Below, piece by piece: positions 13,801 through 42,384 of a stretch of DNA of 64,000 nucleotides. The translations under genes were made by a program, and so were the position numbers. The notes beneath the pieces are model-generated. The model had not been told where the DNA came from and ran no database searches. It saw only the letters and a list, made by a program, of their open reading frames with translations. The stretch's first letter is position 1; each line of letters starts with the position of its first letter. Source of the DNA: Alphaproteobacteria bacterium (GTDB taxonomy: Bacteria; Pseudomonadota; Alphaproteobacteria; JABAAW01; JAHZMA01); assembly GCA_965205905.1 (NCBI GenBank), contig CBDBHZ010000012.1:79528-143527 (forward strand). Reading direction: 5' to 3'.

Positions 13801-16800
13801 GGCACAGCTAATATGGCACTAACCCAAACTGTTACCGATATTGATGGCATGATGATAGTGGGTATTGAAACTGCCGATTTAACAATATTCTCTGGCAGCA
13901 CCACATTTACGGGCAAGGGTAAAGGCGTTTATGGCACGAAAACTGGCAATGTTGCCTCAAGCTATGAAACATCATTTACTGCAAGAGCCATTGTTAATTT
14001 TGATACAGACAGGGTAAATATCACCACCACTAGCACATCCTGCACAGATAATTGTAGCGGTGTTACCGTGCCTAGCTATCTCAATTTCACCATAGATTAC
14101 TTCGATTATGATGGCAACAGCAAGGCGGTAACGCTTGATAACACGCTAACAGGCACGCTTGATACGCGTTTTTATGGTGATGTGGTGCAAGAATTTGGTG
14201 GTGCATTCGCGTTTGCCGAAGCTGATACGCGCTATTATTATGGTGCATTCGGCGCAAAACGTCCGTCTTATGTCTATTCTCTTGATGCCCCACAAACATT
14301 TAATGATAATGATTTAGTAAGCTTTGATGATTTGCGTCGCAAGAGCACAGTTGGCAATGCGTTGAAAATCGCTTCTGCTGTTGAGCTTAAAAGAAGTAGT
14401 GGGTCTAATCAAACTCTTAGTATCGCAGACGCGATCGCTGAATTTAACTATAATGCGGATGATGAGTTTAGTTCATTGATTCTCTATTTAGATGGTCAAA
14501 GATATAGCACAACCAATCTTGATGCTAGTGATATAACTGAAGATGCTGTTTCTGATTTGTCACCCGATTCTTATTCTGGCAGCAATACGCCTAATAGGCT
14601 TCAGTTAAGTAAAAGCACTTACTATTTTGCTGATGTGCCAGAATATATGGCGTTGATTAATTGGACATCGGAATCATCCCAGAATATTAATAATCGGAGT
14701 TATGGCTATGCGATGGTTGGTTATGAAACAGATGGTGATGATATTCCTAGCGCGGGTGATATTACATTTACTGGCGAAGGACATGGGATTTATTATACTG
14801 GCAGTGACTTTGAAGATATACGTTTTACGGCGACTGCCATTGTTAATTTTGCGACCCCAAGCATCGCTTTCAGCACCACAGATACATGCCTTGCCTTTAC
14901 TTCTTGTAGCGACACACGGAGTTTCCTCAATATTGACACTACTTTAAGCTACACAGCTGGCACAAAAGATATCAGTGGCGCGGTTACAGCCGTGGGCGAT
15001 GGCGGTCAATTAACAGGCACGGTAAGTGCCAGATTTTACGGTGATTCAGCGCAGGAATTTGGTGGCACATTTAGCCTATTAAATAGTGGTGCAGACACAG
15101 ATTATGTGGGTTTTTTCGGGGCTAATCGTGTCTTTGTTCCAGAATTTGATAAGCCAACAGATTTTAATCATAATGGTTTAACCAGCTTTACGGATGATGC
15201 CCGCAATGGCACAAGCAATAATGCTTTCAAAATTGCAGGGCTTGTGGCGATGAAAGATACTGCTTCTGAGGCAAGAAGTATTAGCACCAGCACTGATGCT
15301 GTGCTTGAGCTTAGCTATGAGCTTGATGGTGATTTTGCCGCTACGAATGGCATGGCATTATATTGGGGTGATGACCGTTATCGCGCACTTAGGGCTAATA
15401 CTAGTAATTCCACTGCGGATGTACTTCGACCTTACTCTACAGATAAAACAGCGGGTGGCAATATTGGGGTGATGAAAATCGATAAAAGTAGCATTCTTTT
15501 TGACTTTGATTCAGAAAATATGGCAGTGTTTGGATTATCTTTGACAGATAGTGGTGATAGCTATAATATTTATGGTATGACTGGTTTTGAAACAGCTGAT
15601 GATAATATCCCGACATTGGATAATGGCTTCTTCTTTACGGGCAACGGAGAAGGGAAATATGGCAGATATGTAAGTGGTTTGGGATATTCAGACTCAATAC
15701 CTACATATTTTGAAGTTACTGCCCATGTTGATTTTATCAGCCGTAACATCACCGTAACAGGCGAAAATACCTGCGCCTCTGGCAATTATTACAGCAGTTA
15801 CGATGATTGTGTGGCTAGCGCTAATTTGTTTAGTCAGCTTGATTTTACGGCTACCTTAAGCTATAACGCAGGCGATAATGATATTACTGGCGCGATTCAA
15901 ACGTCAGGTAGCAATAGCACATTCGACCGCGTAAGTGGCACGGCAACGGCACGTTTTTATGGCATAGGCACTGATGCAGCAACAGAATTAGGTGGCACAT
16001 TTAGCATGGTTAGCACAACTGGTAGTGTTGCTGAGCAGGATACCTATATTGGTTGGTTCGGTGTAGATGCAGGCACGTTCCCTCTGCTTGTTGATATTGA
16101 TGCGAATACTATCGGCACCAGCGCTGGTGGCACACATGCGATTAGCACGAATTATGGCTCGGTTGCAACGGCATCAGCAGGTGCAAATACAATGAATGTA
16201 CCAGCCTATAAGCTAAAAGCCCTTACGGTGCAAACAGTCAAGAGCAACACATATACCCGCCCTGATACTGCTACAGCATGGGATGTAACAAGCCATAAAA
16301 CCGGTGAACATGTTCAGCTTTCAAAAGTGAGTGGCTCAGTTCTTGAAATAAAATATGGACAACATCAGTGGGACGCTGACAAGGTTGCTATTAGTCAAAT
16401 AAAAACTTATGTAGGCACGACAACCAATGTAAGTTTTTTTGCTTCTACCAGTAATACTCCCTATGACCTTACAGGTCAAATTCAGTCTGCACAAAGTGAT
16501 GGCAGAAGCAGTCGCTTAACCCTGATACATGATGTTGACCCTGACTATTCTGACACTCTCCAAACCGAATATGTGGCATTGGTGGCATGGAATGAAGATT
16601 TAGCACTGCCTGCTTTATCAACAACCGCGCTTACTGATAGCCGTGCCTATGAAGATAGAGGCTATATGGTTGCAGGTGTTGAAACTGCTGGCACAGCCAT
16701 CCCCGGTAGTGGCACAGCAGTTGGTTTTACAGGTGGCGGTGTTGGCACTTATGAAGCATCAGATAGCCCGCTACTGAAAAGCACCCACGTATTTAAAACG

Positions 16801-17109
16801 CGGGTTGTGTTTGACCTTGATGTGGAAGTTAATTTTGTAGGTAAAAAAGTGGATATAACATTCGAAAATACAAGGCAAGACCTTGGTAGCCCAGCGATTG
16901 GCGCGATACCCCATCTTGATTTCACCAGTGAATTAAGCTACACGGCAAACATGAATAACGCCAGTAGCACTGTTACAGTTGATGGTATGGTTGGCGAAGT
17001 GAATGCAAGATTTTACGGTCCTACGGCGCAAGAATTGGGCGGAACATTCCATATGTCAAAAAGCAAATATGATTATTATATGGGTCATTTCGGCGCGAAG
17101 AAAGATTAA
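7807..17109 (+). CDS. Giant surface lipoprotein 1 (3100 aa): signal peptide + lipobox, Gly/Asp tether, ~7 type-1 then ~3 type-2 tandem ~300 aa TbpB-like lobe modules
   Basis: Start MIRLFTLLLLALFLTAC|SSD (lipobox LTAC) with an upstream AAGAG RBS. One uninterrupted 9.3 kb ORF. The 'tattattatggtgc' (YYYGAFGA) end-of-module marker recurs at 8776, 9685, 10606, 11553, 12460, 13354 and 14232, a ~900 bp period. Module signature: LQGL.VGL.D.T.YTR ... FGF.S.YMAYISW ... IDGMMIAGIET ... G.V.F.GKG.GVYG ... VTA.VDF ... LDARFYG...EFGGTFAL...YYYGAFGA.R. The C-terminal third uses the second module type (…ARFYG...ELGGTFS...Y(V/I)G.FG…). Confidence 0.85.
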   Translation: MIRLFTLLLLALFLTACSSDTVGTNSDGDVNNSGDGNNGGGGDVFTPSNTALLNLFETKVAANPKDTKIGEHTSLAAIADEIIILQGLTVGLYDSTDYTRGATSTAWTDTANLQIAREITPLRITESAVSLAFGGAGVMTSATAYADSDIANVAADRNSVFGFNSDNMVYISWGVNQTTENLASGETTGTLTNIDGMMIAGIETASIIGAGRVDFTGKGAGVYGTKTGNIASSQNVTFGVTAAVDFTDRDVIISTDNDDDSLDSTLNFTTAAINYGGSNLINYSFDGSTEQPAVNGMLGQLDARFYGGGTEEFGGTFILTQADTGYYYGAFGASRKGVTPFVAGTVPLALNRLGMVASKNPQTTDVKGNDSLGTVAGEAVILQGLTVGLNDSTEYRREKTNALWTTEANLQITQGLTATHITSSAASLTFGAAGTITSAIAYADEDYANLTADRSAVFGFTSEYMAYITWDTDESLNIDDNTALTQTVTDSNGMMIAGIENNVINIFTAGRVDFKGKGAGVYGTKTDKHKTEFNVTIAADFDESMLNITTSETACTDNCTQFNAPPYLNFSTGLFSYTDNNISTNLTLDGTLTGTLDAKFYGSNAQATGGGAQEFGGAFALAQEDTRYYYGVFGASRNGVVPFVPSDTTTFNALGTVTNANTQNTNIGTHTSLATVATDTVILQGLAVGLQDATIHTRYKDDAWTDSASEFQSVRTINASRITSSAASLTFGATAGTITSATAYADADYATATANRSIGNFTANHLVLVEWGQDESFSSNASGETQTITDIDGMMIAGIETTSVPTGAGNGKATFMGRGKGVYGNITLSDAVTFDVEAEVVFTNNTISFKAENTACDVGTTCATGVTASDLNFAISSLIYTGNNITTSLTNIDGMNGQLDARFYGNSQAFESDGSVTGANELGGTFLVGNADNYYYGAFASARGAIDFTFNSGDTKAINTNVGDITVASTPPNSVATTGIIDSTNSTLQGLAVSLDDSTKYLRPNAQTNSNWNLNDTNNLNINRVFAVSQTASTGTMPAVSLTFTAGAITGFTAYADAEYTGTTVDRKDIFGFANNSSYMAYVTWTQNETFNASVTGVEQNVTNIDGMMIAGIETGAMLSDGKVDFTGKGKGAYGTNDGTSITDYDVSFNVTAAVDFKQGNVNIITDSTSCTANCNSVTLAPDYLNFTTGAFSYGSNDGTTDLTLNNPQVNTNLVGDIDVRFYGNDADDEGLIGSNEFGGTFALANATNYYYGAFGANRGDVFVSSSTSAINAVGVISMDADNPVTTIPSATTLTGNLTLKGLALSLDDEATYTRYKKTSAWMDATETQIARAITLNRVTKSGALIDFATGTATTIYADADYTVSDANVTATIDRDTIFGFATDSNYMAYVEWAQTETVANLDSGNTLSEDSFTNIDGMMIAGLETGSIIGDGKVDFSGKGKGVYGTTAGGAVTVYDVAFGVAVAANFTAGNVTVVTDTTTCIANCNGNTAPNYLNFNTGAFSYGSNNGTTNLALNNPLTGNNIAGTLDVRFYGGGTEEFGGAFALSSANNYYYGAFGASRAGHDLFQGSDITTLNALGTVVATSTVNPSTATTLTGSLTLQGLAVSLNSADEYTRYKDDAWNVTLAELQIDRQVTPNRVTDSGVAIDFTGDTVTTIHADTNYTVSDANVTATVDRDTIFGFASDSNYMAYISWSKDESFNSSASGEMQTVTDIDGMMIAGIETASIIGAGRVDFIGKGKGVYGTKTESFDTVFSVTAKVDFDERDMLLSTTTEACTNCNNFDVSRLDFTNLSLGFESAGASVNSISQAVTLDTTLTGTLDARFYGGGTEEFGGTFALAQADIGTIDGRYYYGAFGASRNGVTPFEPSDTTTIDALNTTSNANPQSTDIGTHTRLSAVAADTVTVQGLAVGLKDATIHTRYKDDLWTVDASEFQTGRTLTASRITGASASLTFGSAGTVTSAIAYVDADYATATANRNIGGSNYNYLTLVEWGQDESFGTANMALTQTVTDIDGMMIVGIETADLTIFSGSTTFTGKGKGVYGTKTGNVASSYETSFTARAIVNFDTDRVNITTTSTSCTDNCSGVTVPSYLNFTIDYFDYDGNSKAVTLDNTLTGTLDTRFYGDVVQEFGGAFAFAEADTRYYYGAFGAKRPSYVYSLDAPQTFNDNDLVSFDDLRRKSTVGNALKIASAVELKRSSGSNQTLSIADAIAEFNYNADDEFSSLILYLDGQRYSTTNLDASDITEDAVSDLSPDSYSGSNTPNRLQLSKSTYYFADVPEYMALINWTSESSQNINNRSYGYAMVGYETDGDDIPSAGDITFTGEGHGIYYTGSDFEDIRFTATAIVNFATPSIAFSTTDTCLAFTSCSDTRSFLNIDTTLSYTAGTKDISGAVTAVGDGGQLTGTVSARFYGDSAQEFGGTFSLLNSGADTDYVGFFGANRVFVPEFDKPTDFNHNGLTSFTDDARNGTSNNAFKIAGLVAMKDTASEARSISTSTDAVLELSYELDGDFAATNGMALYWGDDRYRALRANTSNSTADVLRPYSTDKTAGGNIGVMKIDKSSILFDFDSENMAVFGLSLTDSGDSYNIYGMTGFETADDNIPTLDNGFFFTGNGEGKYGRYVSGLGYSDSIPTYFEVTAHVDFISRNITVTGENTCASGNYYSSYDDCVASANLFSQLDFTATLSYNAGDNDITGAIQTSGSNSTFDRVSGTATARFYGIGTDAATELGGTFSMVSTTGSVAEQDTYIGWFGVDAGTFPLLVDIDANTIGTSAGGTHAISTNYGSVATASAGANTMNVPAYKLKALTVQTVKSNTYTRPDTATAWDVTSHKTGEHVQLSKVSGSVLEIKYGQHQWDADKVAISQIKTYVGTTTNVSFFASTSNTPYDLTGQIQSAQSDGRSSRLTLIHDVDPDYSDTLQTEYVALVAWNEDLALPALSTTALTDSRAYEDRGYMVAGVETAGTAIPGSGTAVGFTGGGVGTYEASDSPLLKSTHVFKTRVVFDLDVEVNFVGKKVDITFENTRQDLGSPAIGAIPHLDFTSELSYTANMNNASSTVTVDGMVGEVNARFYGPTAQELGGTFHMSKSKYDYYMGHFGAKKD
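7975..14270 (+). repeat. Intragenic tandem array of ~7 type-1 lobe modules (period ~880-950 bp) in giant gene 1; type-2 modules follow to 17109
   Basis: Periodic protein motif recurrence read from the translation and the DNA marker 'tattattatgg'. Boundaries are approximate. Confidence 0.7.
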
Positions 17110-22351: not shown

Positions 22352-23581
22352 TCATACATTGCTTTGCCTGATGACATCAATATCTTTTAATAATTTTGAA
22401 ATTCCTTGCAACAATAATAATATCGCCCCTACCACCATTCCAAATTTAATCGGCCAATATTGTATCGCCCATTCGGTGAACGAAACTTCCATCTGCCCTA
22501 ATGAATCAAACGCGAAAATCAATCCTGTTACCAATAATGTGCCAACAAAAATGAAGAAGAACACAGATGTTACGATATCAACGATGGCTTTTTTGCGGGC
22601 AGAAAATTTTGCATAAAAAATATCAACCCTCACATGGCTATTGGTGAGATAGGCGTAGGCGCCAGCCATTAAATATTGCATACCAAACATGAGAAACATC
22701 GATTCATGCGCCCAATTTGTAGGTGAATTAAACACGTAACGCACTGTTACTTCGTAATAATAAACAAACACCGCAATCACCGACCAATAGGCAACATATT
22801 CGCCTGAAAAAAGTGATATTTGGTCAATTTTTCTGATAAGTCCCAGTTTTTTATAAACGAAATCTGAGTCATTTTCCAACTCAGCTTGCAATTCAGGTGC
22901 TTCTGTATCGTCAGCCTCCGCCTGTTGCATTGCCAGTTTTTGATTGGCTTTTGCCACCATTTTAGGAAGCAAAATAGCATCAGCAATCATTAAAATAATC
23001 ACCGCAATAAAGGCGATAAGCGCGTAACTTCCCCATTTTTCTTTTTGCCCCGATGTTTGCCCCGCCACAGCTTGTAAGATGGTTAATTCATCGCGACCAT
23101 CACTCATGCGTGTTGCTATATCTTGTTTTTGCGCGGTTAATTTATCCAATTTACGTTGATGACGCTGATAATCGTTTGACTCGGCATCTTTATCAGCTTC
23201 GGCTTCCGCCATCAGCTGCTTGGTCTCCACCATATCTTCATCAATGTTGAGGCTCTTTTTTGCGTTCCGCGCCATCGATGATTCTAGCGCCGTAACATTT
23301 GCCACACTATCAGAATGCGTTACCCTTGCCTTATTTGCCGATGATGAGGCAAATAGAATGGTGGCGAATAACGCGCAAAACACAATTCCTAACAGGTTTT
23401 TGAGGTAAAAGCGATGCAGACCTAAAAATCCGCCCACCAGCCAAATGAAATAGGCAATATTATTTTGATAAGTCGTCGTTCTATTCAGCGTTTTGCGTGC
23501 CAAATACATCGCAATTAGCGGGAAAGCAAGTATCCCCACCCAATAAAACCAATGAGGCAATGTAAAATTAACGTCAGGCAT
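22352..23581 (-). CDS. TRAP small permease (DctQ) domain fused to an N-terminal TM2-domain plus a coiled-coil/charged linker (409 aa)
   Basis: The C-terminal ~170 aa are DctQ-like (4 TM helices). The N-terminus has ..FIWLVGGFLGLHRFYLKNLLG.., a TM2-domain (G.HRFY.G) hallmark, followed by an ~150 aa Ala/Glu/Lys/Gln-rich segment. The reading frame is continuous. Confidence 0.7.
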   Translation of the reverse strand: MPDVNFTLPHWFYWVGILAFPLIAMYLARKTLNRTTTYQNNIAYFIWLVGGFLGLHRFYLKNLLGIVFCALFATILFASSSANKARVTHSDSVANVTALESSMARNAKKSLNIDEDMVETKQLMAEAEADKDAESNDYQRHQRKLDKLTAQKQDIATRMSDGRDELTILQAVAGQTSGQKEKWGSYALIAFIAVIILMIADAILLPKMVAKANQKLAMQQAEADDTEAPELQAELENDSDFVYKKLGLIRKIDQISLFSGEYVAYWSVIAVFVYYYEVTVRYVFNSPTNWAHESMFLMFGMQYLMAGAYAYLTNSHVRVDIFYAKFSARKKAIVDIVTSVFFFIFVGTLLVTGLIFAFDSLGQMEVSFTEWAIQYWPIKFGMVVGAILLLLQGISKLLKDIDVIRQSNV

Positions 23582-23673: not shown

Positions 23674-24801
23674 TTAAACTTTTAAGCTATAACCTTTAAT
23701 TTGGTCTGGCGTTACATAACCCAGCGACCCTGATAACATATAATCAAGCTGAATTTTGAACACCCGTGCGGCATATTTATCTTTATTTGCCCACGCAAAC
23801 CATCTTTCCACCGCAATTTCAGTAACCGCTTCCACATCATCTTGGCTCAAGCGGGTGATTTTTGTGCCATCTGCTTCAAACTTTTTCCATGCTTCTTGGT
23901 CAGCCACTTGGATTTTTGCATGATGCTCAATCGAATATGACCGCACTTCGTTATGCACAAAGGTTTTCAAGTTTTTCGGCAATTTCTGCCAAGTTTTCAT
24001 GCCAACGGTTAAATCCATGACATCAACGGGTTGATAAATTGACATAAATCCGGGAGGCCCCATCGAGATATAGTCAGTTACCTGCCCAAAGCCGAGCGCG
24101 TAATTGACTGCTGGCCCAACATAATCGGCAACATCAATCGTTCCTTTTTCCAATGCGGGGAAAATTTCTGAACCCGGTAGTAATGTGGTTTTCGCACCTA
24201 ATTTTTGGAACACTTCGGCAACCATACCACCCGGTAGACGCATTTTACGCCCGCGGAAATCATCAATCGAGCGAATAGGAACTTTAGAATGAATGATATT
24301 CGGGCCATGATGAATCGGGCCAACATAATACATGCCCTGCTTGGCGAATAATTCACGGGCGATTTCTAAGCCACCCAAGCCATAATAAAACACATCCCAT
24401 TCATGCGGGTTACGCATACTAAGCGGGTAAGATGATAAGAAAACCGATGCTGGAATACGCCCCGCCCAATAGAGTGTAAAGGGGTTCATGCCTTGAATCA
24501 CGCCATTTTTAACGGCATCAAATAGTTGAAAATCGCCAACCACGTCTTTTGCGCCAAAGGGGATAAATTCAAGCTCGCCACCGGTTTTTTCTTTGATTGA
24601 GTTACACCAATCTTTGAAGATTTGCAAGCCAACACCGCCGGGCCATGATGTTTGAATTTTCCATTTGATTGTTTTACCAGCGGCTGTGGCAATAGCGGGT
24701 GCGGCTAATGCGCCCACGCCTGCGATACTTGCGACTGCTGCGGTCTGAGTTAAGAATTTGCGCCGCGATTTAATATCGCTATTATCTGCACTATTTGTCA
24801 T
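23674..24801 (-). CDS. dctP: TRAP transporter substrate-binding protein (DctP family) with a twin-arginine-like signal peptide
   Basis: 375 aa. N-terminus ..KSRRKFLTQTAAVASIAGVGALAAPAIATAAG (S-R-R-x-F-L Tat motif followed by AxA), then a DctP-fold body. Confidence 0.85.
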   Translation of the reverse strand: MTNSADNSDIKSRRKFLTQTAAVASIAGVGALAAPAIATAAGKTIKWKIQTSWPGGVGLQIFKDWCNSIKEKTGGELEFIPFGAKDVVGDFQLFDAVKNGVIQGMNPFTLYWAGRIPASVFLSSYPLSMRNPHEWDVFYYGLGGLEIARELFAKQGMYYVGPIHHGPNIIHSKVPIRSIDDFRGRKMRLPGGMVAEVFQKLGAKTTLLPGSEIFPALEKGTIDVADYVGPAVNYALGFGQVTDYISMGPPGFMSIYQPVDVMDLTVGMKTWQKLPKNLKTFVHNEVRSYSIEHHAKIQVADQEAWKKFEADGTKITRLSQDDVEAVTEIAVERWFAWANKDKYAARVFKIQLDYMLSGSLGYVTPDQIKGYSLKV

Positions 24802-24920
24802 TATAAATCTCCCTTTTAAATATCAAACTTACCAACAATCTCACTTATGAAATTCTTGATAATTGCATTTTACAGATATGATTTGTTAATGTCAACTCAT
24901 TATTTTGATAATAAGATTAA

Positions 24921-25090
24921 AGGGGGGCAAACACGGTAGGAGTATTGAGTACGGCGGTGGGGGGTTGTTGAGGCAAGCACGGGAGGAGTATTGAAATACA
25001 GCGGGGGGATTATCAAGGGGGGTACGCGCAAGGGAGCGGACGTAAGTCTCGCGACCGAGAAGTTGCGCCGCACCCCCCTTGATACAATAA
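24921..25090. repeat. Intergenic repeat element copy A (~170 bp; poly-G tracts, ~40-bp internal sub-repeats, terminal 12-bp inverted repeat tatcaagggggg / ccccccttgata around a ~50 nt loop)
   Basis: Read directly. Sub-repeats ggagtattgagtacggcggtgggggg / ggagtattgaaatacagcgggggg. Inverted-repeat arms at 25011-25022 and 25074-25085, ending ..cttgatacaataa. A homologous copy lies at 25690-25878. Confidence 0.7.
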
Positions 25091-25092
25091 TG

Positions 25093-25299
25093 CTATTTTT
25101 CTGTGGGCTCTAATGCGCGGGTGGGGTCTCCAACGATGATGGCGCGTTGCAACATATCCAGACGTTCAGGTGTCATAATGCTTTGTGGCACATAATCATC
25201 TCGGTTGATATATTCCTCGATGCCTTCGATAAGTTCTCTTTCTTCTTCATCGCAATAGCCATCAATGAATGGTTCAAATGATTCCATTTCTTTTTTCAT
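25093..25299 (-). CDS. Hypothetical small acidic protein (68 aa)
   Basis: ORF with a 4-nt overlap (translational coupling) to the upstream 122-aa ORF. No family recognised. Confidence 0.4.
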   Translation of the reverse strand: MKKEMESFEPFIDGYCDEEERELIEGIEEYINRDDYVPQSIMTPERLDMLQRAIIVGDPTRALEPTEK

Positions 25300-25664
25300 T
25301 GGCTAGAGGCTATTTTTTCAGTTGATTCAGTATTACTCGCGTTATTTGAAGATTTATTTAAGATAGCAACATCAACGGCAATATTCCGTAAGGTTTCATT
25401 AACCTCGTCAAATTTTGCATCTATTTTATCAAACCCTTTCGTTACATCAGCACGTAGATTTTTGACATCGTCATCTATGTTATTTACTTTTGCATCTAAT
25501 GCTATGACGTTTGAGTATAAGCCAGATATGAAAAAACTACCTGATAAAAGAGCGGTTCCCACTGCCAACACCACGCCAGCAATAACGCCAGTTACTGACG
25601 CAACCATCCACCATTTCTTTAAGTTTACCATACCAGAATTTATCATTATATTTTCTCCTTTCAT
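25296..25664 (-). CDS. Hypothetical membrane-anchored coiled-coil protein (122 aa)
   Basis: N-terminal hydrophobic helix (WWMVASVTGVIAGVVLAVGTALL) followed by heptad-like DAKVNNIDDDVKNLRADVTKGFDKIDAKFDEV. It is the first gene of a two-gene cassette bracketed by repeat copies A and B. Confidence 0.45.
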   Translation of the reverse strand: MKGENIMINSGMVNLKKWWMVASVTGVIAGVVLAVGTALLSGSFFISGLYSNVIALDAKVNNIDDDVKNLRADVTKGFDKIDAKFDEVNETLRNIAVDVAILNKSSNNASNTESTEKIASSQ

Positions 25665-25689
25665 ATATTTGTTTTATTTTATATGAGAT

Positions 25690-25878
25690 GGGGGTGGGTG
25701 TCAAGAAGTTCTCGATGGGAGTGTTAGGTACAGCGGTGGGGGGGGTGGTGAGGGGTGAGGCAAGCTAGATATGAGTATGAGGTATGGCGGGGGGATTATC
25801 AAGGGGGGCATCACGAGCTGATTGGCGCACCGCCAGAATCAGCGAAGTGTATGTCGCACCCCCCTTGATACAATAACG
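25690..25878. repeat. Intergenic repeat element copy B (~190 bp), homolog of copy A with the same terminal inverted repeat and G-tracts (G8 at 25738-25745)
   Basis: Read directly. gcggtggggggggtggtgaggggtgaggcaagc...ggcggggggattatcaaggggggca...gtcgcaccccccttgatacaataa. The ends are conserved and the central loop is divergent relative to copy A. Confidence 0.7.
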
Positions 25879-25880
25879 AC

Positions 25881-25915
25881 AACAAAAAAGGCGCGGTGCT
25901 TGAGAGCATCGCGCC
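25881..25915 (-). terminator. Rho-independent terminator of the minus-strand giant lipoprotein gene
   Basis: Stem GGCGCGGTGC (25890-25899) / GCATCGCGCC (25906-25915) with a 6-nt loop. On the minus strand it is followed by TTTTTTGTT (complement of 25881-25889). It lies 22 nt downstream of the stop at 25938. Confidence 0.75.
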
Positions 25916-25937
25916 TTTGGTATTTAGTCTCTATCGG

Positions 25938-28900
25938 TTAATTATTCGGGTTATCCGCGCCGAAGAAGCCTACGAAGCTTGAGGTTTCACCGCTTACCGA
26001 GAATGTGCCGCCTAATTCTTCTGATGCTGGTCCGTAAAATCTGGCATTGGCTGTGCCTGATAATTCCGTGCCGTCAGCATCAACCGTGTCAAAATCTAAA
26101 TCAGTGCCTGCGGTTTTAACCGTGCCATTGATTTCGTTTGTGCTATAATTTAATGTGCCAGTCATATTCAAGTGTTTGTTAGCGCTGTCTCCACAAGGAT
26201 TAACGTTACTGCTAGAGCATGTTTCGGTTGTGTTGAAAGTGATACCCTTCGCTGGTTGGCTAAAATCAACTGTTGCTGTTACCTTAAAGTAACGTTCATG
26301 ATGAGTGCTAGCAGTCGTATTATATCTGCCACGACCTTTTCCTGTAAATGTTACTTCGCCTGCATCGGTTGGAATAGCAGCAGTTTCAAAACCAGTAATG
26401 ACATAACCTTTATCATACGTGTCAATCCCCCAAAAAAGTGTTGCCATATATTGTGCGGTAAAGCCATAATTAATGGAGGGTGTTCTGTTGAAATTAAACT
26501 CTATCGGATCCACACCATCGCTACTGAAGAAATTTGTGCCACTACCTTGAAAGTAAGTGTCATCAGCATTAGTTGCTGTAACAGTATGTTTTCTATCACC
26601 GATATAGGTTGAAACGCTTGTGATATTACCAAGACTACTATAGGTGATTTCAGCGACGCCACTTGTATAATGATAATTGTTGATTGTTTCAGCAGTGGTA
26701 TCTTTGTTTGTTCGCACTGCATTGCTCGTGCGGAGGGTGAGAGGGTTATTGGCAATATTATTCTTACGCTCCTCATCAGCAAAACCATCTGTGTAATCAG
26801 CAATATCAGCAAATGTAGTTGGCACATTATACGTCATGCCATCGCCTACATCGTCATAAGTTGCCTGCGTTGCTTTCACCTGCGTTGTTACCAACCAACC
26901 ATCGCGTTGCGCGCCGAAATAGCCTGTATAGCCTATACCTCCGTTGGCGAAGCTGAATGTGCCACCTAATTCGACGGCACCTGTTCCGTAAAATTTAGCA
27001 TTGGCATCGCCCGTAAGGCTTGTGGTGCTACCAGCATCATAGCTAAAGTCAGTACCCGTGCCATCTGTATCCGTATATGCGGCGTAGGCACCGCCTTTGG
27101 TGGTGAGTGCTTCGCCACCAGTATTATTGGTGCTTAAATCATTATCGCCATCGGCGTATGTTAATGTGCCAGTGAAGTCGAGGTCAGGGCGGGATGTAGC
27201 AGTGCAATGATTCTCTCTTAAACATGTTTTGGTGCTTGATAATGTTACTGTGCGCGCACTAAAATCAACATTGGCATTAATATCAAAATAATATAGAACA
27301 ACACCAGTATTACTAGCATCAAGGCTACCAGCACTATAACGTCCTTTCCCTGCGCCTGTGAAACTGATATTTTGATAGCCTTTCAGGATATCATCGCCAT
27401 CAGTGGTAAAGCCAAAAATGCCATAGCCAATTTCATAGGTTTTATTACCCATACCATCAGCAACACTTGCCACACTCCATTCAATCAGTGCCAGATAGTT
27501 TGGCACAACACCGAAACTTGATGTATCTCTGCTGAAAATAAATGTATACGGGCTATCAATCTGATTACTATTTGTAGTATAAGCCAAAGAAACTTCACCA
27601 CCAACTGAAGCTCCACCTACACCTGCATTATATAATCCACTCGCTGCCTTATATTTTGTCTCATCAAAATATGCTGTTAGGCTGGTTGGATCAATCGGAG
27701 CATTAGTAGTATTATTATATTTATATTTAACCACGCCACCGCTGATAATATCACTGGTAACAGTTTTATTAATACCATCATGGGTGATGCTCACCAGATT
27801 GTCGATTTCAAAAGTGGCTGTTTTATTTTTGCGGACATCATCATTAAAACTTGTGAATGGTAAGGTGAAATCTGTTGGCAGATTATCGCCTGCAACCATG
27901 CCATCATTATCTGAATCGGTTGTGGTAGTGGTTTCATTAACAATATAACCAATCTCGCCCCCAAAGAAGCCCACATAGGCTGCATTGTCGCTTGTGAGGT
28001 TGAATGTGCCGCCGAATTCGTTGGATTCTGGTCCGTAGAATTTAGCAGTTGCATCGCCTGTTAAACCGCTTGTGGTTTCAACATTATCGAATGCAAGGTC
28101 GTTACCTGTGAATTTCGCCATATCGGTTGTGCCGTAATCTACACTTGCTGTGAAATTAAGGTCAGCGCGCGCTGTGCCACAACTTACGCCAGTGCATGTG
28201 CCTGTGCTTGCCAATGAAACCGTGCGGTTGCCAAAATCAACATTGGCATTGATATTAAAGTTAGTGCTTATATTGCCAAAGCTATCAGAATAGCGACCAA
28301 CGCCCGCACCTGTAAATATAGTTGTGCCAGCAGCTAATGGCGCGACGGTTGCAAAACCTGTGATGCCATAGCCTACTGTTACTTTGGTTGAATCATCTGT
28401 ACTATCCGTAATGTCGGTATCATCTGTTAATACCCATCTCACCCTTGCCATATAATTTGCGGCGGTATCACCAAATGAATTTCTGCTTAAACTAAGATAA
28501 GCAGGGGCAATATTATCACTACTGCCCAGCGTGTAAGCTGTCTTATTAGCATTAAGCTCCTCATCAGTGGTTACCGCACCTTCTGTCCAATATTTTCTAT
28601 CACCAAGATAGATTGAGAGCGGTTTGCCTGAGCCTGCAAAATTGCCACCTGCATAATCAAACACAACCACGCCATTGGTGAAAATATCGTTATTTATCGA
28701 CTTATCCACAGAATTTCTGGTTATCTGCACGAAATTGGCAGATAAAGCATTGTCTAGCGTGCCGGTTTTAGCCGAATCGGTAAAGTTTGCGAGTGTATTC
28801 GAGTTTAATGTTGTCGGCACTGTTTCGGTTACGAGGTTTTCGGGGTCTGTATTATCCGTTACAATCTCAGCCAATGTTGCGGTGGTGATGGTTGCGGTGG

Positions 28901-31771
28901 TAACATAGCCACGCTCTGTGCCGAACCAACCGACATAACCGCCATTTAGGCTTGATAGGCTGAATGTTCCGCCCAATTCGTTGGTTAAACCGCCATAGAA
29001 ACGGGCAGAAGCCGTGCCTGTAAGTTCACTATCACCTATAATGGTAAAAGAATTATCAGAGCCTTGAGTGATAACATCAGCGAAATTGAGCGCGTTTGTG
29101 CCTGCGGTGTAAGTTGCATCACCCTTGAAATTAAGGTGATTGCGTTTTTCGGCACTTGCGTTACAACCTGCAGAAGAGGTGCAAGTGCCACTGCTTTCTA
29201 GCATAACCACGCGTGTGCCAAAATTAACATCTGCTTCAATGTTAAAGGAAATGGGGGTGCTTACCATGCCACCGCCATTGGTATTATAGCTATAAGCGCC
29301 TGCGCCCTTGCCAGTGAATGTGGTTGAACCAGTGCTGAAAAGCGGATTATCGCCATCGGTAGCGGTTTCAAACCCGCCAATGCCGTAGCCGATAGTATCG
29401 CCGACAACCCAATCAATCCGTGCCATATAGGTGGCATCAAAGCCGAACGGAGTTCTATCTAGGTTGAGAGACGCGCCCGAATCAGCCGTGCCATCTTTAT
29501 CAATATCAACAGCCGTGCCAGAAATGGATTTTAAATCAGATGAGGTGCCTAACGTTACCTGATAGATGCTACCGCCAATATAGAGTGTGGGCGCCTTTGA
29601 CGTTTCATTGAACTTATATCAAACGAACCACCACCATAGCGATAGCTAACCGCGCCACCCGTGAAGGTTTCGTTGGTAACAATATTGGCAGTGTTATCGG
29701 TGGTGATTTGCGCCATAGAGGCAACAGGTAGCGCGATAATACGTTGGACGCCGCCATCTACGACAAAGCTTGTTGCGCTATCAAGGCTTTGCACTGGCAC
29801 GTTATCGCTATCAGTTGCCACAGCATCTTTGGCATCAATCACATAGCCACGTTCTGTGCCGAATAAGCCAACATAGCCTATGGTGCTATCTGTTGTGCCG
29901 AAATTGAAAGTGCCGCCGAATTCTTCGGCGTTTGCTCCGTAAAATTTGGCTTGGGCTGTGCCAGAAAGGGAGGCGATATTGTTTGCGGGTGTTTGCGTAT
30001 CAACAAGCCCTGCGGTGGTTACCGCGCCCGTGATGGCGTTTGTGCCTGTATTGTAGCTTAAATTGCCCGTGAAGTTGAGGTCATCACGTTCCGTGTTTAT
30101 GCATTCACCAGAGCATGTGTCAGTGGTTGCGAGTGCAACATTGCGCGCGCCGAAATCAACTGTGGCGGTAATATCAAAGCTAGTGCCAAAAGTTCCAATG
30201 CTATCAGAATAGCGACCCCAACCCTCGCCCTTGAAGATGGTAACGCCAGAGGGGATAAGTGCCGTGCTGGCGGTTTCAAAGCCAGTAACGCCAAAGCCGT
30301 AATTATCGTAATCATAGTCAATATCAGTTGTGCTGGCGGCATTATCGTTATCTAGCACTTTCCATCTTAAACCGAGCATGTAATCAGCCTGAAAGCCGAA
30401 CAGAACGCGTCTATCAAGGCGGGCAGTATTAGGGGCAATGCCATCAGTGCTGGTTACGCTGCCAGCACTGGACGCAGATTGAATGTAATCAGCATCAGTT
30501 TCGGCATTTTTCGTGATTATCTGATAGGTGGTATCAGTAAGATAGAATTTGATGCTAGTAGAAAGAAAGTTTAAGCCATTATAAGCAAATTCTAACGTGC
30601 CAGTGATGTTTTCAGCATTGATATTCATGCCATCAGCAGGACGGGTGATGCCCACCAGTGAATCAATATCAAAGATAACAGTTTTATTAGCACGATTGGC
30701 ATCGTTAAGACTGGTTAATGCCATAAGGTCTTCAGATGGGCGCAATATGCCACGTTGACCGCCATAAAACGCGCCATAATAGTAGTTTGTTGCGCTTGAG
30801 ACGGCGAATGTGCCGCCAAATTCATTGGCACCACCGCCAGCCGCATTGCCATAGAAACGGGCATCAAGACTGCCTGCCATGCCATCTAAATCAGTGAAAC
30901 TGTGGTTGATATTGTTTATAGTGGCATAGTTGATGTTGGTTACGGCGAAATCAAGTTGCGTCAACTGTTCTGTTCCCGCTTTTGTGTTGTTGGCGGTGAT
31001 GTTTACATTGGTATTTGTAAAATCAGCGACGGTGGTAACATCAAATGTAACATCTTTGCCGCCATCAACAGTGCCATAAACACCCGCGCCCGCACCCGTA
31101 AATGTGGTTGTGTTAGAGAGAGGGATATTGCCATCTTCGGTGAGAACACCCGCGATCGCCATGCCGTGAATATTGTTAGATGAGCCTGTTGTTGCGCTAT
31201 CCGTAAATTCGGTTTCGTTAATGTTCCAGTTGATATAGGCGACATAATCAGAGGCAAGCCCGAAAAGAGTGTTTCTAGTAACCGTGCCAGTTAGCGATTC
31301 GCCAGCATCGCCATAATTTATGGTTGCCGAATCAGCGGTAGCGTTAAATGTGATGTTAGCAGTCGCGCCAGTGATTCGCGTTGGGGTGATTTGCTGATCG
31401 ATTTGTAATTTTGATTTATCGTTAATATCCCAAGCCGTGTTGGCAGCCGAATCGGCACGTGTGTAGTCGCCGTTATCGTTCAGGGTAACCGCCAAAGCCG
31501 ATAATGTTATGAGGGTATCGTCAGTAACATCAGCAAGTGTAGGGTATGTGGCGCTATCAAAAACGGTATCGTTCGGGGTTGTGGTTGATACCATATCAAG
31601 CGGGTTGATGGTTGCTGATTCGCTTCCCACGAAGACTGGGTCAGTAGGGGCAGGGGCAGGGTCAGGGTCAGTATTGCTAGCGCCTCCGCCTCCGCCAGAA
31701 CTGCCACCGTTACAAGCGGTGAGGGTGATCAGTGATAAAACTGAGATGGTTGAGATAAGTAAATGACGCAT
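25938..31771 (-). pseudogene. Giant surface lipoprotein 2 (~1940 aa if intact), interrupted by a -1 frameshift near 29555-29620; 1 type-1 + ~5 type-2 lobe modules. It is either a true pseudogene/phase-off allele or an assembly error in repetitive DNA
   Basis: True start ATG at 31771 (MRHLLISTISVLSLITLTAC|NGGSSGGGGGASNTDPDPAPAPTDP, RBS AAGGA), 39 codons inside track ORF 29555..31888. Frame A ends ...VSYRYGGGSFDISSMKRQRRPHSILAVASIR* at 29555. The conserved sequence continues in the -1 frame (YKFNETSKAPTLYIGGSIYQVTLGT...RTPFGFDATYMARIDW), running into track ORF 25938..29426, whose listed 'M' is an internal Met of the conserved FGF...YMA.I.W motif. Confidence 0.6.
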
Positions 31772-31807
31772 GATTTCTATCCTTTTAACATAGCGATAGA
31801 TAAAATT

Positions 31808-31836
31808 ACTATAATGTTTTTTTGGTTGGGGTGCAA
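31808..31836 (-). promoter_or_regulatory. Candidate sigma70 promoter of giant gene 2: -35 TTGCAC (31836-31831), 17-nt spacer containing an A7/T7 homopolymer (31817-31823), -10 TATAGT (31813-31808)
   Basis: Read on the minus strand: TTGCACcccaaccaaaaaaacatTATAGT, ~37 nt upstream of the ATG at 31771. Confidence 0.4.
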
Positions 31837-31877
31837 TAGTGGTTATGGAAATTTTGATAATATCAGCGAGATATAAC

Positions 31878-31905
31878 TTGACTATCATTTGATATTGCTT
31901 ATGAT
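31878..31905 (+). promoter_or_regulatory. Candidate sigma70 promoter of giant gene 3: -35 TTGACT (31878-31883), 16-nt spacer, -10 TATGAT (31900-31905)
   Basis: Read directly in the 166-bp divergent intergenic region; the ATG is at 31938. Confidence 0.4.
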
Positions 31906-31937: not shown

Positions 31938-34900
31938 ATGAACAAATATTTTTATATCATCACTTTATTAATGGTTTCTGTTTTTTTGAATGGTTGTAGC
32001 ACAGAACGTGGTGGCAGTGGCATTGTGAGCTCTGGCGTTGTGAGCGATGATGTGTTTATCGCTGATAGCATTAAGAAAGATGAGACTGATGAAGTTTTTG
32101 CAACCGTTACTCCCTATGGTTCGTTGACGGCAGCATCGGCTGATATCGAGAATACGGACGATAAAATATTCACCTTGCAAGGGTTGGCGGTGCAAGGTGG
32201 TGAGGTTACCAATTACACTGCCGGTGGCGATTTTGGGTGGTCGCAAGATGGTGAGACAAGCATCACTGTTGCCACCATCACAGCGCCTGCTGTGAGCCTC
32301 ACTTTTGATGGTAATGGCAAGATGTCGGCAGTAAAAGCTTATTTCGCTGATAAAACCTATGAAGTTTCCGCTAATGGTAATGATTCCGCCATGCAGATTA
32401 GCGCAACAAATATCACCAGTGGTGCACAAACAGATGCCACTATCGCCACACTTACTGTGGATAGAGACGAGGTTTTTGGCTTTGATTCTAACTATATGGC
32501 ATATATTGGCTGGAATCTTGAAAGAACGCAAGGTGATGCTAATCGTTTAGACTCGCTTGGTAGTGGTAAGGATAGGGCTTATAGTATCAATGGTAATATG
32601 ATTGTAGGAATTGAAACCGATGATGTGAGTATTCCTAGAAATGGTGAGGTTAGTTTTATCGGCAAAGGGCGCGGCTATTACAGCCATGTTGATAAAGGAA
32701 TCAGTAGCCATGCCACGATATTTGATGTTACGACTGATGTTGATTTTTCTACTCAAACTATCAATGTTAATAGTGCGAATACAATGCAATGTGGCAATAG
32801 CATTGATGTTAGCAGTTGCAAAACTGCTGTAGGTGCGCTTGAATTTAGCACGCAAGAAACATTTGTTTACATCACTAATAATAAGATTGGTTTTCGTGGC
32901 GATGTTTCGCTGAAATCCGATAGTAGTTTTACAGGCACCATTGATGCGCGTTTTTATGGCAGTCGCGCACAGGAATTAGGCAGCATATTTGCGATGCGTG
33001 ATGAAACAGGTGGCTATTATTATGGCGCATTTGGCGGTGAGCGCGAGGGGGTGGAAGCGCCCAGCGTATTTAATACAGCAATAGGTGATGAGGCATTAAT
33101 TGTTGCCGAAGAAATAAAGATAGATAATAAGATTACAAACAACCTTCCTGTTAATTCGCTGACCGCTGTGGCTGATGCGGGCGATGGCAATGCGTTTACG
33201 ATGCGCGCTTTAACTGTTTATAAAGATGATACCACCGATTACATACGTGCGCCAAATCGGGATTGGGCTAGGGCGGATACAGCGCGTATGGTTGGACTCA
33301 CACAATTAAGTGGCGCTGCGGCGTCTCTCACTTTTGATGCTGCTGGTAAGATATCAGGTGTAACTGCCTATTTGAATAGTAAAACCTATACAGTCAATGT
33401 GATTGATGACACACTTACACCCACTGCCACGATGTTTAGTGCCAGTATTAACGGTGCGGATAAAGATGCACGCACGACTAACATTACTGTTGATAGAGGC
33501 GATAAATTTTTTGGCTTTGATTCTAATTATATGGCGCATATCAGTTGGAATTTGGAAAAAACAGACGATAAGCTTACGACCGATATGTTGGATGTATATG
33601 ATGACATTTATCATATCAGCGGTGCGATGTTGGCAGGGATTGAGACTGATGATGCGGATATTCACTTGTTCGGCAATCAAGTTTCCTTTAATGGTAAAGG
33701 GCGTGGCACTTATGGTGATTTAGATGGAAGCTATGATACTATATTTGATATAACAGCGATTGTTAATTTTAGCGCGCGCAATCTACTGCTTGCTAGCTCT
33801 AATACTTGCAAAGCGACTGACTGCGAGAATGAGGCGATGCGTGACCTTGATTTCAGTATTTCATCAGCGCCGATATTCTATAATAGTAATAATATCAGTG
33901 CTAATATAAATGATGCAGATTTCGGCTCAGTTGCGCTTGATGCGCGTTTTTATGGCGGTGATGCGTGGGAGTTTGGTGGCACATTCGCGATAACATACGC
34001 GACTAATAATAGCTATTATTATGGCGCATTCGGTGCGTTACGTAAAGGTATCACTGCGCCATCGATATTTGATGCCACAATAGACAGTGAGACGGTAAAG
34101 CTACCAGATAATGTTACGGCGCCGTTTATTCCTATTGATATTGCTACCAACAACCCTTATGAATCTCTCACTGCCATTGCAGGCACTGATAAACGCGTGG
34201 TGCTGAATGCTCTATCAGTTTATAAAGATGATACCACTATTTACACACGGGCGCCAAAGCGAGATTGGGCAACAGATGCGGATAAGGTAACAACAACCAG
34301 TATTCTCAGGCTTACTGACTCTGTTGCATCGCTTGTTTTTACTGGCGATAATAAAGGTGAAACGCTTTACGTGAATGATGTTTATACCAATGATAATGCC
34401 ACAATTACTGTTGATAGAAGTAAGGTTTTTGTTTTTGGTTCTAGCTATATGGCTTATATCAGTTGGGGCATAGATAATGAATTTGATAATGATAACACGG
34501 GCTTAACGGGTGAAGTTGTTGATATTAGTGGTAAGATGCTTGCTGGTATTGAGACCAATGATATGAATATCGCCTTAACTGGCGAGGTTTCCTTTAACGG
34601 CAAAGGGCGTGGCACTTATGGTAATGCAGACGAAGAAATCTACGATACTGTGTTTGATGTTAGGGCGGGAGTTGATTTTGTCGCCAAGAATGTTACGATT
34701 TGGAGTGAGAACACATGCAAAGCAGGTGATGATGCAAAATGTGATGTTGGTGGTGCAGATAGGCGTGATTTTCTTGATTTTACATCAGCGATATTAAGTT
34801 ACGCTGATGGGGAAAGCAATGCGGTCAATCATATCAGCGGTGCTGTTCATGCAGATGGCTTGGCGGGCACAATTGATGCGCGTTTTTATGGTGGTGCAAC

Positions 34901-42380: not shown

Positions 42381-42384
42381 CATC

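Follow-up and report, generated by a model that had tools for sequence, protein, structure and literature searches.

Two G-rich repeat elements, copy A (24921-25090) and copy B (25690-25878), lie on either side of a pair of small genes in a 64,000-nucleotide stretch of contig CBDBHZ010000012.1 from an Alphaproteobacteria bacterium (hereafter the window). Judged by sequence comparison, both are members of an undescribed, lineage-specific, many-copy family of non-coding mosaic repeats of the REP, BIME, MITE or Rickettsia palindromic element (RPE) kind. The explanation that we favor, and hold to be likely, is that this family of mosaic repeats operates at the level of DNA, and that A and B occupy, independently of each other, the two intergenic spaces that flank a toxin-antitoxin-type locus in decay, where they serve as patches for recombination.

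A scan of one genome per species for the pattern TATCAAGGGGG-N36-66-CCCCCTTGATA returned 68 stretches, 26 of which (with 28 matches) belong to the metagenome-assembled genome (MAG) JAHZMA01, listed as 'Alphaproteobacteria bacterium X_S6_bin.7' and having a GC content of about 0.42, and 2 to the MAG CBDETR01. The copies in these two MAGs have features that the search pattern did not specify, namely a preceding GCGGGGGGAT, an internal CAAGG with CCGAGAAG, and a TCGCA bulge. The alphaproteobacterial lineage to which the MAGs of these relatives belong has been reported from sponges (PMC13393909). We built a covariance model from 32 copies, with a structure that we drew ourselves, and searched it with filters off. 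The model detected A (80.1 bits) and B (69.2 bits) and nothing else in the 64-kb window, and about 58 distinct copies, often several per 1 to 3 kb, in 201,847 bases of the relatives' DNA.

These copies are mostly intergenic, lie in either orientation, and occur singly or in gene-free clusters, with clusters present in loci L015, L005, and L034. They are assembled from modules: a hairpin of 74 to 78 nt, one to three G-rich sub-repeats of ~45 nt (consensus ...CACGCACCnCCGCTAATATTGAGTAnGGCGGGGGG), and optional extra modules, a further one of which (...TCGCAAAGCCCCCCATATAATAATG...) is present in many copies. Flanking genes occur in each of the four configurations at about the same frequency (12, 11, 9, and 8, by crude calls of open reading frames [ORFs]). 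This speaks against a role dependent on transcriptional direction, and the idea that orientation is tied to transcription was rejected on this count. The 148 ORFs nearest to elements encode mostly unrelated housekeeping proteins, including DNA polymerase A, LysRS, GlnA, and histidinol dehydrogenase, together with ankyrin-repeat and TbpB-like proteins; Mu-like genes are the sole mobile-element genes among them. A scan of viral contigs for the hairpin pattern gave 0 matches, Rfam gave only chance-level matches for the whole window at gathering thresholds and for 24700-26000 at an E-value threshold, and a full-text literature search for the arm sequences retrieved only unrelated primers.

Repeats that are otherwise different from this family were found in distant phyla with common words beyond the search pattern, AATCCCCCC..CCCCCCTT(T)ATCAAGGGGG ... 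CCCCCTTGATAAAGGGGG..GGGGGGATT. They are held by loci of Thiobacillus (L002, L006, L009, L050, and L063), Elusimicrobiales (L014, L059, and L065), candidate phyla (L020 and L039), and cyanobacteria (L003 and L044), and by L018, L019, L041, L026, and L056. The recurrence of these words may reflect either a common mechanism or simple-sequence convergence. A separate observation concerns the Coriobacteriaceae MAG RUG13877, which has ~20 copies of a 60-nt near-perfect palindrome, CCTATCAAGGGGGAGTACCCCTCTTGATTGGTACCTATCAAGAGGGGTACTCCCCCTTGATAGG, in stretches L007, L010, L012, L013, L016, L017, L022, L028, L031, L035, L036, L038, L043, L045, L047, L051, L053, and L062.

Anatomy and structural conservation of the elements

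An initial annotation of the window, made from the sequence alone, had described A and B as a pair of elements with conserved ends, and both copies proved to be real. An identical 22-nt block, CGCACCCCCCTTGATACAATAA, occurs at 25069-25090 and 25855-25876, a pairing that is expected 0.00 times by chance and that appears in none of the shuffled sequences, and the block GCGGGGGGATTATCAAGGGGGG is likewise identical in A and B. The 12-bp inverted repeat, TATCAAGGGGGG/CCCCCCTTGATA, is present as described at 25011-25022/25073-25084 in A and at 25797-25808/25859-25870 in B, where it closes a 74-nt hairpin; exact matches to its arms number 4 in the window against 0.18 expected. The ~50-nt "variable loop" said to lie within it has the right length, since 50 nt are enclosed in each copy, but it is not a loop: its interior pairs into two more stems, P2 and P3, which are separated by a conserved internal loop. 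Internal sub-repeats were also found, in the form of two 31-nt units per copy that start at 24934 and 24980 in A (46 nt apart) and at 25713 and 25767 in B (54 nt apart), as were G6 to G8 runs, 9 of the 14 G or C runs of at least 6 nt in the window falling within A and B. The modules of the two copies are as follows.

24921-25010, plus strand: copy A G-rich sub-repeat module, units 24934-24964 and 24980-25010 with G6 runs, GC skew +0.59
25011-25084, plus strand: copy A hairpin core, base stem P1 TATCAAGGGGGG/CCCCCCTTGATA, P2 GCGCAA/TTGCGC, GAGAAG internal loop, GCA bulge, "type b" tip, 80.1 bits
25085-25090, plus strand: copy A conserved tail CAATAA, where homology with locus L089 ends
25690-25796, plus strand: copy B G-rich sub-repeat module, units 25713-25743 and 25767-25797 with G5, G8, and G6 runs, GC skew +0.73
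25797-25870, plus strand: copy B hairpin core, P1 as in A, interior CTGATTGGCGCACCGCCAGAATCAG of another subfamily and without the GAGAAG loop, 69.2 bits
25871-25876, plus strand: copy B conserved tail CAATAA, an identical block

With DNA parameters, the folding energies of the 78-nt cores are -24 to -26 kcal/mol whichever strand is taken (z -5.7 to -6.4), the core of copy A giving -25 to -26 kcal/mol with z about -6. The sub-repeat modules are without structure (z -0.7 to +0.9) and strongly strand-asymmetric, being C-rich and G-poor on the sense (minus) strand. Column identity between A and B is 79% overall, and their hairpin interiors differ. The closest sequences to A are the JAHZMA01 copies L049 and L011 (87 to 89% identity), and the closest to the interior of B are L058, L073, and L091 (82 to 90%). 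By these comparisons A and B are assigned to different subfamilies rather than to a matched pair, each being closer to copies in other genomes than to its partner. The elements also create spurious ORFs of 40 to 57 aa, for example MKYSGGIIKGGTRKG...RTPLDT (window 24900-25073, minus strand; 24991-25113, plus strand), and gene callers have likewise placed spurious ORFs across elements on the relatives' contigs (L089:791-1144).

The alignment of 32 copies supports the drawn structure. Its cells are paired at 93.8%, against 82.8% after shuffling and 47 to 54% in controls with slid partners, and 11 of the 25 pairs (78 cells) have changed on both sides, a result reached by 0 of 500 shuffles. P1 is invariant in the 32 aligned copies, and the CBDETR copies have a compensated variant of it, TTAAGG/CCTTAA. 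P2 occurs in at least 6 versions, each complementary, and the tip (P3) falls into several discrete types that combine freely with those of P2. Unpaired bases are conserved on one side only, in an asymmetric AA/GAGAAG internal loop and the TCGCA bulge. The non-Watson-Crick cells comprise 7 G.T and 10 A.C, so that neither strand is favored as RNA, and an attempt to identify an RNA strand from wobble pairs was rejected for this reason. Much of the apparent covariation reflects an exchange of modules between copies and not stepwise compensation. Between the window and L089, the orthologous hairpins upstream of dctP are distinguished by a single contiguous patch of ~35 nt, covering the tip and one arm, and apart from this patch the flanks of the two copies are about 92% identical.

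Some copies lie in frame inside ORFs. A MuA-like ORF of 742 aa (L005:4482-6710, minus strand; HTH_Tnp_Mu_1, rve, and Mu-transpos_C domains) reads through two copies, a duplicate of it (L048:1634-3920, minus strand) is split at the first copy, and another MuA-like ORF (L066:1824-2810, minus strand) reads through one copy. All three in-ORF copies are translated in the frame IKGG...PLD. Phage homologues of the Mu-like transposase have a 29-aa gap at one copy site, and a comparison of the transposases shows a 27-aa insert in L066 relative to L005, the flanks of which are too diverged for a target-site duplication to be read. The genes come from two related MAGs, and the copies lie within them and do not form their boundaries. 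Palindromic repeats that occur both in intergenic regions and in frame within ORFs are familiar from the Rickettsia palindromic elements.

Synteny breakpoints and the apparently decaying two-gene locus

The genes that adjoin A and B all lie on the minus strand, in the order TbpB-like gene, terminator-type hairpin, copy B, promoter-like site, ORF122, ORF68, copy A, promoter-like site, dctP, dctQ, and dctM. The initial annotation had correctly placed both the dctP promoter region (24895->24867) and the giant-gene terminator (25887-25918).

29426-25938, minus strand: giant TbpB-like gene, 1162 aa with TbpB_B_D domains (domain scan)
25887-25918: intrinsic-terminator-type hairpin 3' of the giant TbpB-like gene, 14 pairs, with T/A runs on both sides
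25676-25704, minus strand: sigma-70-like promoter of the two-gene unit, TTGACA-17-TAAAAT, 11/12 matches, overlapping the inner end of copy B
25296-25664, minus strand: ORF122, hydrophobic N-terminus and coiled coil, 4-nt overlap with ORF68
25093-25299, minus strand: ORF68, acidic, 68 aa, corresponding to the N-terminal half of a CopG-type (BrnA-like) antitoxin family, without the RHH domain
24867-24895, minus strand: sigma-70-like promoter of dctP, TTGACA-17-TAAAAT, 11/12 matches, just beyond the sub-repeat end of copy A

A single metagenome assembly of low coverage (2-3x) is the source of the relatives' loci L074, L089, L090, and L091. DctP is so conserved across orders that its protein identity does not single out orthologous loci unless it reaches 100%. 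L089 provides such a match (100% amino acid identity); it aligns to window positions 25090-23590 at 92%, keeps the dctP promoter site, and stops at the hairpin-side end of copy A (25090), beyond which it has a gene for an 8xMP membrane protein and unrelated DNA. An alignment of the window with both L074 and L089 shows it to agree with L074 left of the hairpin, at the ORF68 end, and with L089 from the hairpin rightward. L090 is collinear with the window through the giant-gene homologue (65% identity), the terminator, and the sub-repeats to the start of ORF68, after which it continues into lysS. Copy A looks like a junction between two loci, and these alignments show the ends of elements to coincide with synteny breakpoints. 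The pattern is most simply read as the outcome of dispersed copies having recombined in one of the two lineages.

The elements bracket the two ORFs exactly, as the initial annotation had it, with the stop codon of ORF68 (25093-25095) 2 nt from the end of copy A. ORF68 is indeed acidic, with a net charge of about -11. The description of ORF122 as an anchored coiled-coil protein agrees with its hydrophobic N-terminus and its weak matches of coiled-coil type, but the proposed start at 25664 is less probable than one at 25646, which would give a protein of 116 aa; the latter is likely because an AAGGAG motif precedes it and a 116-aa protein on record matches the product. Neither PHROGs, PADLOC, nor NCBIfam was informative on ORF122 or ORF68, and ORF68 has no Pfam match.

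Relatives of both proteins are few. ORF122 has only two others and is unrelated to the 95-99-aa partners found beside homologues of ORF68. These homologues, 63 to 73 aa in length, occur in the MAGs JAHZLX01 and JAHZMA01 and in the ENA assembly ERZ25069264, directly after an overlapping gene of 95 to 99 aa and in at least 5 different contexts. More distant metagenomic relatives of ~95 aa match PF12441 (CopG_antitoxin) at 33 bits (cut-off 28) through residues 41-93, a region that is absent from ORF68. ORF68, being without this C-terminal half, equates to the N-terminal portion of antitoxins of a type II family. The ~96-aa partner encoded upstream in relatives matches phrog_38250 and, below threshold, BrnT_toxin PF04365 (19.3 bits against a cut-off of 34.5; E = 0.0015).

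The gene slot upstream of the ORF68-type antitoxin varies among loci (window 25296-25664; L074:445-744; L091:9531-9821; L090:1640-1690). It holds a BrnT-like gene of 96 to 99 aa, a 30-nt remnant, or ORF122, and the promoter and leader are homologous throughout. The remnant, in L090, consists of just the final ~30 nt of the toxin gene, beside an antitoxin that is cut to 40 aa; in L074 the homologue of ORF122 is separate, downstream of the second element. The BrnT-like/antitoxin pairs of L074 and L091 have a promoter homologous to that at 25676-25704 in the window (87% identity over 55 nt). As promoter and leader are shared with the BrnT-like genes of these loci, the coding sequence appears to have been replaced within a conserved frame. 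We read the module as a decaying type II toxin-antitoxin-like locus in which ORF122 has taken the place of the toxin gene between a fixed promoter and antitoxin.

Such modules bear directly on whether the repeats moved the gene pair. The initial annotation had seen in A and B a REP- or MITE-type pair that mobilized or delimits a small cassette. The assignment to a dispersed, many-copy, mostly intergenic repeat holds, as does the delimiting of a block, inasmuch as the ends fall at synteny breaks; mobilization of the cassette is not supported, because A and B are of different subfamilies and the module is found elsewhere without flanking repeats. Among other modules of the ORF68 type, that in L071 has no element, those in L073 and L090 have one upstream only, that in L069 has one 1 kb downstream, past another gene, and that in L091 has a weak partial match (19.9 bits) just downstream. 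The only other module with an element on each side is in L074, and because it shares the terminator, the promoter, and the junction of ORF68 with the element, it represents the same ancestral locus as the window and not an independent insertion; its bracket is probably orthologous to that of the window. The occurrence of the module without flanking repeats leaves cassette mobilization unsupported, and a better account of the bracket is that dispersed repeats recombined or inserted around a toxin-antitoxin locus in decay.

Weighing the explanations

As we envisage it, the family would act at the level of DNA, its hairpin pairing equally well on both strands. Copies would swap stem-loop modules by gene conversion and provide patches of homology through which unrelated loci are joined by rearrangement, and they may spread by means of an enzyme that recognizes the hairpin in single-stranded or cruciform form. 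In the orientation found in the window, the hairpin and the unstructured C-rich tract on the sense strand may in addition protect the 3' end of the upstream mRNA, or may load Rho and so insulate the next promoter.

Several observations weigh against this account. The window, 64 kb of the source genome, holds 2 copies only, and the copy number of the family rests on relatives, of which L074, L089, L090, and L091 are treated as a single genome. The comparisons are compatible with a rearrangement in either direction. Neither a target-site duplication, a clean empty site, nor a cognate transposase was found, and mobility is to that extent inferred. The asymmetric loop and the bulge are conserved, which suggests that they have a specific function, and a repeat that is purely passive would need none. 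Finally, both window copies have the same orientation to transcription and each is followed by a strong promoter-like site, which could reflect a local regulatory role.

That last point is the kernel of the explanation by a cis-acting transcript element, in which the sense-strand hairpin and C-rich tract terminate, insulate, or stabilize the upstream transcript, or supply or regulate the downstream promoter. Both copies lie, in the same orientation, between a gene end and a strong promoter-like site (11/12), and the sub-repeat tracts, which are unstructured and have GC skews between +0.59 and +0.73, resemble Rho-loading sites. An outward promoter-like motif occurs on the sub-repeat side in 8 of 58 copies, against 3, 0, and 0 in the other three directions. 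This bias is a hint and not a rule, since 50 of the 58 copies are without the motif, and the proposal that the element carries an outward promoter was set aside because it holds for those 8 copies only. Nor does a U-run follow either element hairpin on either strand, so that the elements are not ordinary terminators, a possibility that the initial annotation had allowed; the reading of the hairpins as intrinsic terminators was rejected for want of this tract, and a terminator scan at gene-element boundaries called 25887-25918 alone. With the family unbiased in its orientation to flanking genes, with copies inside coding genes, and with no Rfam match, we regard a cis-acting role as the primary explanation as unlikely. 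The suggestion that the G-tracts form quadruplexes is weak in its turn: neither A nor B has four tracts of G3 or more with loops of 1 to 7 nt, the loops between G6 runs being 8 to 38 nt, and only two-tetrad quadruplexes are predicted (G4Hunter maxima 1.88 in A and 2.4 in B). The companion idea that the tracts are hypermutable is similarly weak; G-run length does range from G5 to G10 among copies, but as read in low-coverage assemblies.

The invariant base stem, the conserved one-sided unpaired bases (GAGAAG, TCGCA), and a tip that stays paired however freely it is exchanged are what would lead one to see in the hairpin the recognition site of a structure-specific DNA recombinase or transposase that moves the element, also in frame into genes, and swaps its tips. 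We give this a slim chance; if it were true, the words C-run, TTGATAA, G-run, and GGGGGGATT in the repeats of Thiobacillus, Elusimicrobiota, candidate-phyla bacteria, and cyanobacteria could mean that the mobilizing machinery is shared and widespread. A composite mobile unit, in which the two flanking elements carried ORF122-ORF68 into the region between dctP and the giant gene in the style of a MITE-bracketed or composite transposon, would account for the direct repetition of A and B, their identical 22-nt ends, the exact bracket, the synteny breaks at the outer element ends, and the two-gene module with an ORF68 homologue between two elements of the same relative orientation in L074. It nevertheless appears improbable to us: the L074 bracket is the same ancestral locus, the ORF68-type modules of L071, L073, L090, L069, and L091 are not bracketed, the interiors of A and B differ, no target duplication is visible, and the cassette's own promoter is common to paralogues that have no bracket.

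Capture or exchange of the ORF pair by a single-strand recombinase, with the elements as structure-specific sites of the integron attC or IS200/IS605-end type, would suit the attC-like anatomy (a conserved base stem, unpaired bases on one side, GAGAAG vs AA and the TCGCA bulge, and a hypervariable paired tip) and the differing gene in the slot beside ORF68 among relatives. The attC core sites RYYYAAC/GTTRRRY are, however, absent on direct reading, which led us to reject the attC assignment. There is also no integrase or HUH gene in the window or among the 148 neighboring ORFs in relatives, copies are scattered singly or in gene-free clusters with no cassette arrays, and the variable slot lies inside the promoter-antitoxin frame and not between two hairpins. 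We accordingly judge recombination sites of this type to be quite improbable. Least credible of all is a gene on the plus strand for a small RNA of ~170 to 190 nt per copy, antisense to its neighbors, G-rich with GGA motifs, and ending in the large hairpin. Weak plus-strand promoter-like sites do lie upstream of the copies (24883-24912 and 25624-25669), and a proper terminator lies downstream of copy B, but the plus-strand folds of the whole elements are unexceptional (z -2.9 for A and -0.7 for B), Rfam has no match, wobble pairs have no strand bias, and copies occur in frame inside ORFs and, across the family, in both orientations.

Known systems, significance, and surrounding genes

The mosaic repeat resembles REP and BIME in being a many-copy, extragenic set of palindromic units that form mosaics with short motifs, singly or in clusters and in either orientation, and that can be substrates for recombination and possible structures at mRNA 3' ends. 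Its copy number, at 28 exact-pattern copies in JAHZMA01 and ~58 model matches in 202 kb, is also in keeping with REP/BIME. It differs from them in that its hairpin is 74 to 78 nt long with three stems and conserved unpaired bases, whereas a REP is an imperfect palindrome of 20 to 40 nt; in its conserved flank, GCGGGGGGAT instead of GTAG; and in having in-frame genic copies too. No RAYT/Y1_Tnp gene was found among the window ORFs or among the 25 most frequent families of the 148 element-adjacent ORFs.

To MITEs such as Correia/CREE of Neisseria, ERIC/IRU, RUP, and BOX, it is similar in its size (~170-190 bp), its non-coding nature, its possibly terminal or sub-terminal inverted repeats, its dozens of copies at gene boundaries, and a modularity like that of boxA-B-C. 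Unlike in MITEs, the inverted repeat closes an internal hairpin and not the element termini, and one side is a strand-asymmetric array of G-rich sub-repeats. Conserved sequence extends past the perfect 12-bp inverted repeat on both sides, into the sub-repeats and the 3' modules, so that this repeat does not fix the true termini of the element. An autonomous parental insertion sequence with the same ends was found neither in the window nor in the ~200 kb around copies. With RPE the family has in common an alphaproteobacterial host, a palindromic structure, and a presence both between genes and in frame in ORFs (L005 and L066), but the relatives are sponge-associated MAGs and not Rickettsia, the in-ORF copies lie in prophage transposases only, and the likeness drawn here is one of behavior.

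Integron attC sites share with the hairpin a conserved base stem, extrahelical bases, a variable terminal structure, and a short ORF unit between two sites; they differ from it in that the arms, TATCAAG...CTTGATA, fit RYYYAAC/GTTRRRY on neither strand, and the unit differs from an integron cassette in having its own promoter-like site, no integrase in the window, and dispersed copies without an array. The gene pair itself recalls the type II BrnT/BrnA (CopG antitoxin) systems, with two small overlapping genes in toxin-then-antitoxin order, several paralogues per genome in varied contexts, and full-length ORF68 relatives that have PF12441 CopG_antitoxin. It departs from them in that ORF68 is without the DNA-binding RHH half and ORF122 is a membrane/coiled-coil protein unrelated to the ~96-aa partner. 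The element, then, behaves like REP/BIME, MITE, and RPE, but it lacks, as far as these are testable, the features that define each named family.

The family adds an undescribed member to the REP/MITE/RPE class, from marine Alphaproteobacteria of an uncultured lineage that invertebrate hosts are reported to harbor, and offers a concrete case of copies that lie at synteny breakpoints and exchange modules. With it, in-frame palindromic repeats that proteins tolerate would have a second example besides that of Rickettsia, and the locus documents the apparent replacement of a toxin gene in a conserved promoter/antitoxin frame. For annotation, the covariance model can be used to mask repeats and to flag spurious IKGG...PLD ORFs. 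Repeats at sites of rearrangement are an ordinary kind of feature, and no major concept is changed by them.

A few observations on the surroundings remain. Terminator-type hairpins of the form AAAGGCGCG...CGCGCCTTTT lie directly beside elements at three loci (window 25887-25918; L074:99-129 and 377-403; L090:1179-1203), and these may be a further module of the mosaic and not gene-specific terminators. The DctQ protein of the TRAP transporter (window 22352-23581, minus strand) is an unusual fusion of 409 aa in which the DctQ domain covers residues 273-401 only, the N-terminus matching a TM2 domain at residues 40-73 (under the Pfam cut-off) and leading into a charged linker of ~200 aa. Three giant genes of 3100 to 3480 aa (window 7807-17109, 31938-42380, and 42337-52140, plus strand) have common internal repeats of ~60 to 500 nt, which recur in the JAHZMA01 loci L008 and L052 at 70 to 90% identity. 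Two large proteins (window 25938-29426 and 29555-31888, minus strand) have TbpB_B_D beta-barrel domains of the transferrin-binding-protein type, and their homologues adjoin elements in L074 and L090.

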